Positions 4,002-5,384 of a stretch of DNA of 54,392 nucleotides are shown one piece after another. A program made the position numbers and the translations under genes. This DNA is from an uncultured Rickettsiales bacterium (GTDB lineage Bacteria > Pseudomonadota > Alphaproteobacteria > CAJXXZ01 > CAZLVD01): positions 122,494 to 176,885 of the forward strand of contig CAZLVD010000001.1 of NCBI GenBank assembly GCA_964563095.1. Direction: 5' to 3'. Under the pieces are notes generated by a model. The model had not been told where the DNA came from. It did no database searches and was given only the letters and a program-made list of their open reading frames with translations. Positions within the stretch are counted from its first letter, which is position 1, and each line of letters starts with the position of its first letter.

Positions 4002-4406
4002 ATGAATTTTTTATTATTAAGTTTGTTTCTATGTGGTATGCATCATATCAAAGCGCCTATAGAGAATAATATTGTATCTATGAATGATATGTTATCTATG
4101 AGGTCTAATATATCGCCTGTAAGTATAACTGTAAACAATGAGAAGTTATGTATGGATTTTTATAAGCATGTAGAATCTTCCGCTAGATTTCTTAGCCTTG
4201 AAGTAGATATACGTACAAAAATCCTGTCGGCTATGACAGAGTGGCTTACACGTTGCAAAATTACGCAATTGAGGAATATATTATTAGTATCATACGCATT
4301 ACATGATTGGTTATGTGATTATAAGATCCAAAAGAAGATTTGTGTATATATATCAAATAAATTTAAGCAGTTTGCATTTCAATATGGATATAGTAATGTT
4401 TATTAA
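4002..4406 (+). CDS. Hypothetical small exported protein (134 aa), paralog-like to 13956-14351
   Basis: N-terminal hydrophobic leader MNFLLLSLFLCGMHHIKA. Segment IRTKILSAMTEWLTR aligns with IQTLILTTLCAFKTWLYE of the 131-aa ORF. Confidence 0.55.
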   Translation: MNFLLLSLFLCGMHHIKAPIENNIVSMNDMLSMRSNISPVSITVNNEKLCMDFYKHVESSARFLSLEVDIRTKILSAMTEWLTRCKITQLRNILLVSYALHDWLCDYKIQKKICVYISNKFKQFAFQYGYSNVY

Positions 4407-4442
4407 GGATTTATTTATTATATGATATTATAAATATGTCTT

Positions 4443-5384
4443 ATGATACATAGATTATTGTTAAATTTAGCTTGTATGATATTTTTATCTGCTCCAAATG
4501 CAGCCGGCGATACTTCATCCAGTGCATCGTTGAGTTCTGATCTTTCAGTAGAGGAATCTCAGGATGCGATAAGATACACTATTATCAGTATAGTAACGCA
4601 AGCTGATGACAATATAGTCATACAATATCAGAAGAATAATACGCAGGAAATATATGAAATATATGACATGTCTATTGCACCTGAAGTTTTGGGGCAAGTA
4701 TTAAATTGGTTTCAATCAACAATAATGAATATAATCCCTACAAATCCAGCTAGTAATACATCTCTACAGGATTTATTAACAAGAATCCAGCAGCAGACTA
4801 CTGATATGGCAAAACTTAATCAGATATTAGGTGATTTATTATCATCTAATGCAACGACTGTATCACATACAAATATAGGGTTATTTAATAATCTCATACA
4901 TATGTTAAGAATGGCAGCAGAGAGACAATATTCCATTGAAATACAATATGATGATATATGTGACTGTATACATATAACACGTACTCATCTTGCAACACAA
5001 AAAGTAGACAAGATAGAGAATATAGTAGCGCAGCAGGTGATAAATGAGGTGATACAAGTAATGGAAGTATTACTTCACCAATCAGAAGGCAATCAGGTAT
5101 TCTTATCTTGGTTAAGGCCGATATATGAAACATTAATCAATAACAATATAGATAATCAGAATGGTATGCCATTTGATGAACAGAGAGATCTTGAACGATG
5201 TAAGATTAATATAATACAGCAAGTATTACAAGAATGTCAGATGTATAATATATATGATGATATGTATATATACTATCATGGTATATATCTAAAACTTATG
5301 AATTGTTTGAAAAGAGTAATGCATAACAATAATAACAACAATAACAATAATAATAACAACAACAATAACAACAATGCAGTATGA
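4443..5384 (+). CDS. Hypothetical exported protein (313 aa) with an internally repeated module and a 17-Asn C-terminal tract
   Basis: Leader MIHRLLLNLACMIFLSAPNAAG followed by a Ser/Asp-rich stretch. Architecture parallels 14376-14930. Poly-Asn encoded at 5325-5375. Confidence 0.6.
   Translation: MIHRLLLNLACMIFLSAPNAAGDTSSSASLSSDLSVEESQDAIRYTIISIVTQADDNIVIQYQKNNTQEIYEIYDMSIAPEVLGQVLNWFQSTIMNIIPTNPASNTSLQDLLTRIQQQTTDMAKLNQILGDLLSSNATTVSHTNIGLFNNLIHMLRMAAERQYSIEIQYDDICDCIHITRTHLATQKVDKIENIVAQQVINEVIQVMEVLLHQSEGNQVFLSWLRPIYETLINNNIDNQNGMPFDEQRDLERCKINIIQQVLQECQMYNIYDDMYIYYHGIYLKLMNCLKRVMHNNNNNNNNNNNNNNNNNAV
5325..5375 (+). repeat. Coding poly-Asn tract (17 mixed AAT/AAC codons)
   Basis: Read directly from the sequence. 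Confidence 0.9.

Follow-up and report, generated by a model that had tools for sequence, protein, structure and literature searches.

Islands of leader-bearing orphan genes between conserved housekeeping genes of an uncultured Rickettsiales bacterium

A stretch of 54,392 nucleotides (nt) from an uncultured Rickettsiales bacterium (assembly GCA_964563095.1, contig CAZLVD010000001.1, positions 122,494 to 176,885 of the forward strand), called the window below, was found to contain two islands of orphan genes, A0-A1-A2 between der and dnaJ and B0-B1-B2 between rpsQ and gltX. The island open reading frames (ORFs) are real genes. Most of them begin with a hydrophobic leader and none could be placed in a known family; they show local paralogy, and the island between der and dnaJ is hypervariable between related lineages. 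With slightly better than even confidence, we read the islands as encoding lineage-restricted, family-less proteins of the envelope or host interface, predicted to be exported by the general secretory (Sec) pathway and subject to quick turnover in a reduced, host-associated bacterium. The genes concerned are the following.

3393-3833, forward strand: A0, an acidic orphan of 146 amino acids (aa) with an isoelectric point (pI) of 4.6 and without a leader, starting 33 nt after der
4002-4406, forward strand: A1, the small partner of 134 aa, with the leader MNFLLLSLFLCGMHHIKA at 4002-4055
4443-5384, forward strand: A2, the acidic large partner of 313 aa (pI 4.6), with a signal-peptide-like leader at 4443-4508
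5325-5375, forward strand: 17 consecutive Asn codons, AAT and AAC mixed, in the C-terminus of A2
13257-13847, forward strand: B0, an acidic orphan of 196 aa (pI 4.5)
13956-14351, forward strand: B1, the small partner of 131 aa, with the leader MKIKLFLYVLNVLNATS
14376-14930, forward strand: B2, the acidic large partner of 184 aa (pI 5.3), with the leader MKQFLLFSVLLVSAPGIQS followed by a Ser/Asp linker

A first-pass annotation of the window had described A1-A2 and B1-B2 as a duplicated two-gene module. The four ORFs, the intergenic gaps of 36 nt (A1-A2) and 24 nt (B1-B2) and the hydrophobic leaders were exactly as it had given them. The common order of the two pairs is real as well, but each pair lies in a larger island of three genes, in which a third orphan on the same strand precedes the pair. 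The leader of A2 is followed by a Ser/Asp linker and two modules that probably arose by internal duplication (4509-4922 and 4923-5327), with an E-x-N-x-x-F-L-S motif at 5085-5108. In B0 the signal-peptide-like segment MRNFLITMMCMSVFA/V (the slash marks the candidate cut) begins at the internal Met18 (nt 13308). The mature parts of the small partners are near-neutral to basic, with a pI of 9.0, four Cys and two Trp in A1 and a pI of 7.3, three Cys and two Trp in B1, whose similarity to the A1 family is marginal only. A good match to −10 and −35 boxes ends 6 nt before A1, and a same-strand terminator is absent within either pair. The promoter and terminator scans gave results at background level, which are compatible with co-transcription and no evidence for it.

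Frames of this length are hardly expected by chance. Base-shuffled versions of the window gave about 0.03 ORFs of at least 131 aa per window and none of at least 184 aa. A codon model ranked the annotated frame best of six, with poor separation, since antisense control ORFs overlap the range; A1 and A2, with scores of 0.13 and 0.18, are found at the low end of the values for known genes. The sequence was identical (100%) in assemblies from two public sequencing runs. The sole strain variant found (L085) shows a single substitution and, in a spacer, a 1-bp deletion, which is too little for a ratio of non-synonymous to synonymous substitution rates (dN/dS).

Leaders were called in five of the six island ORFs; among 28 cytoplasmic housekeeping proteins there was none (Fisher P = 2e-5). 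Rule-based scoring, which looked for a short positively charged n-region and an h-region of about 7-15 residues, assigned the leaders to the Sec type. The h-regions span 9-14 residues, in A1, A2, B1 and B2 within the first 20 residues, with a mean Kyte-Doolittle hydropathy of 1.95-2.5, and the net charge of the n-region is +1 to +3 in A2, B0, B1 and B2 and 0 in A1. Candidate signal peptidase I sites are AAG/D in A2, IQS/R in B2 and VFA/V in B0. A1 offers only LCG/M, with a Pro after its IKA, and B1 offers LNA/T, with a Pro after its ATS. No lipobox ([LVI][ASTVI][GAS]C) was found; the Cys residues of the h-regions lack allowed residues at −1 and −3 (LFLC in A1, NLAC in A2). No membrane-span-like segment of 19 residues occurs in A1, A2, B1 or B2.

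Leader-bearing orphans are common in this genome. Three more orphans with hydrophobic N-termini, at 38667-39647 (326 aa), 42953-43681 (242 aa) and 52388-52873 (161 aa), stand singly between abc and rpsL, topA and nhx, and gatB and yebC.

The first-pass annotation could not assign the pairs to a known family, and this was borne out. The best matches in Pfam and NCBIfam had E-values of at least 0.017, far under the cut-offs, and A1 and B1 likewise matched nothing there. The large protein libraries and the PDB were searched with A2 and B2 as queries, and a set of 1.84 billion representatives with A2 only. The PDB sequence search gave E-values of at least 1.5 or no match at all. In a word-seeded search of 5.8 billion protein clusters nothing was found for A2, and B2 found only itself. 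The clusters of A1 and B1 at 90% identity hold the proteins themselves and one near-identical variant only. The exact A2 protein is missing from a collection of 15 billion proteins, with Met1 as well as with Met12 as start, whereas A0, A1, B0, B1 and B2 are present.

The only match to A2 in the exhaustive HMMER search of the 1.84 billion representatives was a Gram-positive repeat adhesin of 3141 aa (P0009, E = 1.5e-17). It was rejected as an artefact of summation, in which 23 near-identical repeats match the same 30-37 residues of A2, a short beta-hairpin-like stretch. The best single stretch scores 6.8 bits (E = 4e5).

A DnaJ search yielded relatives at 84, 80, 64, 59 and 53% identity, followed by 46%, and contigs were obtained for four of these relatives. 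The closest one (L086, DnaJ 84%) is collinear with the window from der to rplE; der, dnaJ, rpsG, valS, a GatC-like gene and rplE were aligned by blastn, with 70-84% DNA and 64-92% protein identity. This comparison delimits the first island.

3323-5413: island A, flanked by 78-84% DNA identity up to 3322 (in der) and again from 5414 (dnaJ)

Nothing within 3323-5413 could be aligned to this relative by blastn or tblastx. Its der-dnaJ interval holds four leader-bearing ORFs, X1 (147 aa), X2 (224 aa), X3 (282 aa) and X4 (190 aa), and their identity to A0-A2 is 15-22%, no more than expected at random. A third lineage (L087) has a different leader-bearing ORF of 179 aa (Y179) adjoining dnaJ. In the relative at 64% DnaJ identity, aspS lies directly upstream of dnaJ and there is no island at that place. 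Because the gene sets differ between conserved flanks, the der-dnaJ interval is a hot spot of turnover for genes of predicted exported proteins.

Distant similarity was detected below the level of alignable DNA. In an iterative HMMER search among the 104 ORFs of the loci, with leaders stripped, A1 found X1 and Y179, and X3 found Y179 and A1. Shuffle tests gave P ~0.002 (local) and <0.0005 (global) for A1 and X1, P <0.0005 for Y179 and X3, and P = 0.001-0.005 for A1 and X3. X1 and X3 did not match each other directly, though each matches A1. X2 and X4 are paralogues, with z = 6.6 over the last 60 residues and a common E-x-N-x-x-F-L-S...E-L-F-x-x-L-K ending. A2 has the E-x-N-x-x-F-L-S part of this ending, a motif with only three further occurrences among 2 million six-frame residues. 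The similarity of A2 to X2 is weak (P ~0.02) and is unsupported by the hidden Markov model (HMM) of X2 and X4 (P = 0.53) and by leader-free local alignment (P = 0.07-0.08). Judged by these sequence comparisons, the small-large-small-large order of X1-X4 looks like a tandemly doubled two-gene unit, of which A1-A2 would be one. The 326-aa orphan at 38667-39647 is weakly similar to X3 and to the A1-family model (P = 0.0015-0.009), but not significantly so in a shuffle test.

No orthologues of island B were retrieved from relatives. A scan of the metagenomes of the Joint Genome Institute (JGI) with glutamyl-tRNA synthetase (GluRS) returned one unrelated locus at 34% identity, look-ups of the ribosomal protein clusters gave no close variants, and the GluRS 'cluster' consisted of unrelated proteins of 55 aa.

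Further differences from the closest relative were seen around the first island. A leader-bearing ORF of 308 aa (X308, 7392-8318 of its contig) lies between dnaJ and rpsG, where the window has a spacer of 505 nt (6534-7038). A plsC-like acyltransferase (1052-1774 of its contig) separates the tRNAs from der, a place at which only a short spacer is found in the window (1817-2018). These extra genes point to ongoing gene loss or turnover between sister lineages. The 83-aa ORF at 10597-10848 on the reverse strand, read as GatC-like, is conserved in the same relative (74% DNA and 64% protein identity), so the small unassigned ORFs of this genome are not all hypervariable.

The islands also stand apart in composition. 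The acidic members, A0, A2, B0 and B2 together with X2 and X4 of the relative, have a pI of 4.3-5.3. A pI below 5.5 was found in only three of the 42 other proteins of the window, against 4.5-5.3 for the acidic partners of the islands (P = 2e-4). Among the small partners, which are near-neutral or basic, the pI is 9.0 in A1, 8.6 in X3, 7.9 in Y179, 7.3 in B1 and 5.9 in X1, and each carries two to four Cys and one to three Trp. Both islands thus have the same order, with a near-neutral or basic Cys/Trp protein between two acidic ones. Tandem-repeat arrays are concentrated here as well, with eight of the 30 arrays lying within the islands, which make up 6.7% of the window (P = 6e-4). A0, with an N-terminus rich in Asp, Asn, Ser and Thr, has in-frame tandem repeats of 9 and 24 nt (NPD, AQTQxxAN). 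A1 has a repeat of 18 nt, B1 an array of 11 nt and B2 a tandem repeat of 21 nt that stays in frame (14516-14560, AATQDAA/AATPDAA), and three arrays lie in A2, including the Asn run. One independent assembly contig terminates inside this run.

The similarity of the two pairs to each other was examined by direct alignment, shuffling and profile comparison. The first-pass annotation had aligned the small partners by eye; this alignment is at the level of chance. A1 and B1 gave a BLASTP E-value of 1.4 and a full-length Smith-Waterman z of 0.1, with P = 0.43-0.46 without leaders and 0.3-0.5 in composition-preserving shuffles. For A2 and B2 the E-value was 2 and z was 2.0, P was 0.19-0.22 without leaders, and the best alignment covers the leader and polar linker only. 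The proposed common module of the large partners, an aromatic-x-I-x-hydrophobic pattern followed by a helix, scored z = 0.04, and 27% of arbitrary segment pairs from the two proteins scored equally well or better. The leader ending in Ser-Ala-Pro and the Ser/Asp stretch behind it are present in both large partners, but these are generic features of signal peptides and linkers. HHalign of single sequences gave 0.3% for A1/B1 and 1.7% for A2/B2, and profile against profile 0.1% for both, without significant similarity, an outcome that the first-pass annotation had named as refuting; the profiles came from MAFFT alignments of these very divergent proteins, which makes the profile comparisons uninformative. 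Duplication of the pair from A to B was thus not borne out.

Paralogy was clearer within the islands. B0 and B2 are diverged paralogues (P = 4e-4 to 1e-3). The second internal copy suspected in A2 held moderately: residues 23-160 against 161-295 gave z = 2.8 in local (P = 0.013) and z = 4.1 in global alignment, and shuffles that preserve local composition gave P = 0.008-0.019 globally, but P = 0.064 locally. Going by these scores, A2 is probably internally doubled.

The first-pass reading was weighed as a rival explanation, according to which A1+A2 and B1+B2 go back to a single ancestral pair of genes that was copied to a second genomic site, after which the copies became nearly unrecognisable as relatives. 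The pairs are alike in order, sizes and short gaps, and also in physico-chemical class: in each, the first protein is small and near-neutral or basic, with Cys and Trp, and the second is acidic and has a polar linker behind the leader. The apparent tandem doubling of a small+large unit as X1-X2-X3-X4 fits as well. Weak transitive links run from A2 to X2 (P = 0.016-0.023), from X2 to B0 (P = 0.001-0.003, global) and from B0 to B2 (P = 0.001), and further weak links join the A2 halves to B2 (P = 0.04-0.07) and B1 to Y179 (P = 0.035-0.06); the best marginal value of A against B was that of the N-terminal half of A2 and B2 (P ~0.04). In 11 of 31 comparisons within a type, the global z lay above all 35 small-against-large controls (0 of 35 for the controls), and this shift makes some deep relatedness plausible. 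Set against these links are the failure of the direct tests of A1/B1 and A2/B2 by shuffles, BLASTP and HHalign, the chance level of the by-eye alignments and the lack of any DNA repeat common to islands A and B. HMMs miss the proposed partners too, as the A1-family model scores B1 at P = 0.20 and the models of X2+X4 and B0+B2 do not score A2, B0 or B2. The link of X2 to B0 is lost in the leader-stripped HMMER search, and the small and large classes are not clean, as A1 scores against the X2+X4 model (P = 0.0055). We regard a common origin of the pairs as possible, though somewhat unlikely. A bolder version, in which A and B are one family and form a hitherto undescribed two-component exported system of a small basic or near-neutral Cys/Trp protein and an acidic partner with a beta-hairpin and a helix, which duplicates as a unit in tandem and to new sites, diversifies more quickly than the rest of the genome and makes up the variable surface or host-contact layer in a clade of reduced symbionts, is judged unlikely.

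Two other explanations concern what the ORFs are. They might be non-functional, either decaying remnants or chance frames in the drifting spacer of a degenerating genome. The lack of homologues, the low codon scores of A1 and A2 within the overlap with the antisense controls and the missing leader of A0 would fit this, as would the island being no more alignable than true spacers and X308 of the relative matching a gene-free spacer in the window. Yet, at a G+C content of 30%, a shuffled window should contain about 0.03 or fewer open frames as long as these (131-313 codons), long ORFs occupy the interval in two independently diverged lineages, and the third lineage has its 179-aa ORF adjoining dnaJ on a truncated contig. 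Leaders are kept in five of the six ORFs here and in all six ORFs seen in relatives, and family-level similarity outlasts a saturating divergence, so that non-functional ORFs seem very improbable. Alternatively, the island proteins might be ordinary periplasmic or outer-membrane housekeeping proteins, such as chaperones or parts for envelope maintenance, that have diverged beyond recognition and are neither lineage-specific novelties nor host-interaction factors. Housekeeping proteins are indeed very divergent here, with DnaJ at most 46% identical outside the clade and Der, as we read it, showing degeneration of its first GTPase domain together with an acidic insert. Gram-negative envelope genes are present (a PpiD-like protein in the window and, in the relative L089, a LolC/E-like permease by our own reading and a lipoprotein), and a signal peptide with helical composition is common among such proteins. 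Essential envelope parts should, however, remain alignable at 84% DnaJ identity, whereas the island proteins are only 15-22% identical and there are four genes in place of three; a more distant relative lacks any gene between aspS and dnaJ, and Pfam and NCBIfam held no weak match to an envelope family even at E-values up to 1. This explanation is therefore considered improbable.

Several points weigh against reading the islands as quickly changing exported proteins. The leaders were called by a rule-based script (charge, Kyte-Doolittle hydropathy and −3/−1 rules) and not by a trained predictor. In A1 the hydrophobic core is not preceded by a positive charge and a Pro follows the best Ala site, the hydrophobic core of B1 is short (nine residues), and A0 has no leader. 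The start of A2 is ambiguous, as gene callers differ on two contigs and the Met12 call truncates the leader. Single-sequence AlphaFold2 models were unusable, with a predicted local distance difference test (pLDDT) score of 37.5 for A2 and 46.5 for B2; Foldseek with these low-confidence models found nothing at E <= 0.001, and against the PDB only generic helical bundles with E > 0.01. Spacers between conserved genes are equally unalignable at the divergence of the closest relative, so the unalignable island may reflect very weak sequence constraint with kept frames and leaders, and not necessarily positive selection. No sec, signal peptidase or secretin genes were seen, the analysis covering this window only. 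The pilus-like genes described below adjoin comF and may serve DNA uptake instead.

From sequence features we infer export, cleavage, partnership and a host role for the island proteins along the following lines. These small, mostly helical proteins would cross the inner membrane via Sec; A2, B0 and B2 would be cut by signal peptidase I, and the candidate sites of A1 and B1 are less canonical. Their place of action would be outside the cytoplasm, whether in the periplasm, on the surface of the cell or at the interface with the host, and a speculative route to or across the outer membrane would be the PilB/PilC-type machine at 31.8-36.2 kb. The alternation of acidic with near-neutral or basic Cys/Trp proteins suggests that the two types work as partners. 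The islands would change by tandem gene duplication, internal domain duplication, slippage in codon repeats and near-saturating substitution, so that even sister lineages differ in their gene sets there. The impression of the first-pass annotation that the pairs resemble surface or host-interaction factors gains support from the hypervariable der-dnaJ island with its differing leader-bearing genes in relatives, whereas a duplication of the pair could not be demonstrated.

By analogy of operation, the closest known kind of system is the Sec-dependent secretome of reduced, host-restricted bacteria. In size, predicted signal peptide, absence of any other membrane span and lineage restriction, the island proteins agree with the class of Sec-delivered effectors, which is a functional class and not a sequence family. 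Like the SAP proteins of phytoplasmas (SAP11) and the Sec-delivered effectors of 'Candidatus Liberibacter', they are small and defined by a signal peptide, with no further span (PMC8026896, PMC4235307, PMC12047186, PMC5776943). They are likewise family-less, lineage-restricted, variable between strains and clustered in variable regions of small genomes. There is no sequence relationship to those effectors. No mobile-unit genes flank the islands, and an alternation of acidic and basic partners is not described for the phytoplasma and Liberibacter repertoires. The setting differs too, with apparently two membranes here (a PpiD-like protein, and LolC/E-like genes in a relative), and Sec export alone would therefore leave the island proteins in the periplasm.

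Type IV pilus-type systems have been shown or proposed to secrete proteins with signal sequences in Francisella, Vibrio and Dichelobacter, and this is also proposed for Coxiella (PMC3882888). The present case resembles the type II secretion and type IV pilus-like secretion of intracellular Gammaproteobacteria (Legionella, Francisella) in that the window encodes PilB/GspE-like and PilC/GspF-like proteins along with many uncharacterised leader-bearing proteins; in those bacteria the substrates carry Sec signal sequences and include many 'novel' proteins (PMC3882888, PMC6617341). The known substrates are biased towards enzymes, unlike here, and the connection of the island proteins to such a machine is pure inference. 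The concentration of in-frame short repeats and of the 17-Asn run in island genes recalls contingency-type surface-protein genes. Unlike in those genes, the repeats are imperfect and in frame and would change length and not switch expression on or off. Between samples no variation of repeat length was observed, with one contig ending in the Asn tract.

In reduced genomes, lineage-specific, exported and rapidly changing genes are the best candidates for dealing with the host. The window and three related assemblies present two or more hot spots that are precisely bounded by conserved housekeeping genes, and the intervals der-dnaJ and rpsQ-gltX form a defined comparative system for the origin, duplication and replacement of exported proteins. 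The islands do not open a long-standing question.

The window has a G+C content of about 30% and densely packed housekeeping genes in a rearranged order; about 12 of its roughly 48 genes have no assignable family. Its further gene content is as follows.

Housekeeping genes: tuf, der, dnaJ, rpsG, valS, pieces of the ribosomal protein operons, gltX and rpoA
Further housekeeping genes: pheT, dnaN, clpX/P, topA, tig and gatB
Other genes: two amino-acid permeases, a Na+/H+ exchanger, an ABC transporter, comF and a PilB/PilC pair
Also encoded: a HolC-like ORF, a PpiD-like protein, DciA, and tRNA-Tyr and tRNA-Gly upstream of tuf
30471-31175: comF, near the PilB/PilC-type genes
31801-36188, reverse strand: type IV pilus or type II secretion-like genes, encoding a PilB/GspE ATPase, a PilC/GspF platform protein and a 438-aa orphan

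From this gene content the source is read as a fast-evolving, reduced, host-associated Gram-negative bacterium; by our own reading, the HolC-like ORF, the PpiD-like protein, DciA and the two tRNA genes would suggest a gammaproteobacterial affinity. A search of species-representative genomes with Der gave no match, so the genome is missing from that set, and a scan with DnaJ gave only matches of 37-44% identity, mostly in Pelagibacteraceae and Verrucomicrobiota, which are taxonomically uninformative. The PilB/GspE-type ATPase bears an MshEN N-domain, and the neighbouring 438-aa orphan has one membrane span. A pattern search of the six frames of the window for the class III leader of type IV pilins and pseudopilins, G/(F or M)-T-L-x-E, gave no match, and no secretin, pseudopilin or prepilin motif was found within the window.

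Several tandem duplications lie outside the islands. One of 61 nt (31116-31237, 98% identical) takes in the final 60 nt of comF, whose end is at 31175, and the DNA directly behind it. Spacer duplications at 17908-18060 and 19434-19582 flank rpsJ and the holC-like gene, one being 75 nt twice (98% identity) and the other 80 nt 1.9 times (88%). At 50436-50579, abutting tRNA-Pro (50583-50656), lie 3.7 copies of a 39-nt unit (99% identity), which yield spurious repeat-bearing ORFs on both strands. Just downstream of valS, two segments (10279-10327 and 10341-10367) match the reverse complement of the 5' end of rplX (12473-12521 and 12427-12453) at 88-89%; the region 10279-10367 is probably an inverted partial copy of the start of rplX, left by a rearrangement.

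The longest ORF of ribosomal protein S13 (29137-29571) has a hydrophobic N-terminal extension that mimics a leader, and the real start is probably a downstream Met (MSVRILGVEL...). Long terminal extensions rich in Lys, Ala, Thr and Glu were seen in S10, S5, S11, L5, L24 and trigger factor (tig), for example at the following places, the extension being judged against the usual bacterial lengths.

18364-18813, 19757-20392, 29584-30132, 11336-11995, 12097-12528 and 45753-47576: genes of extended proteins

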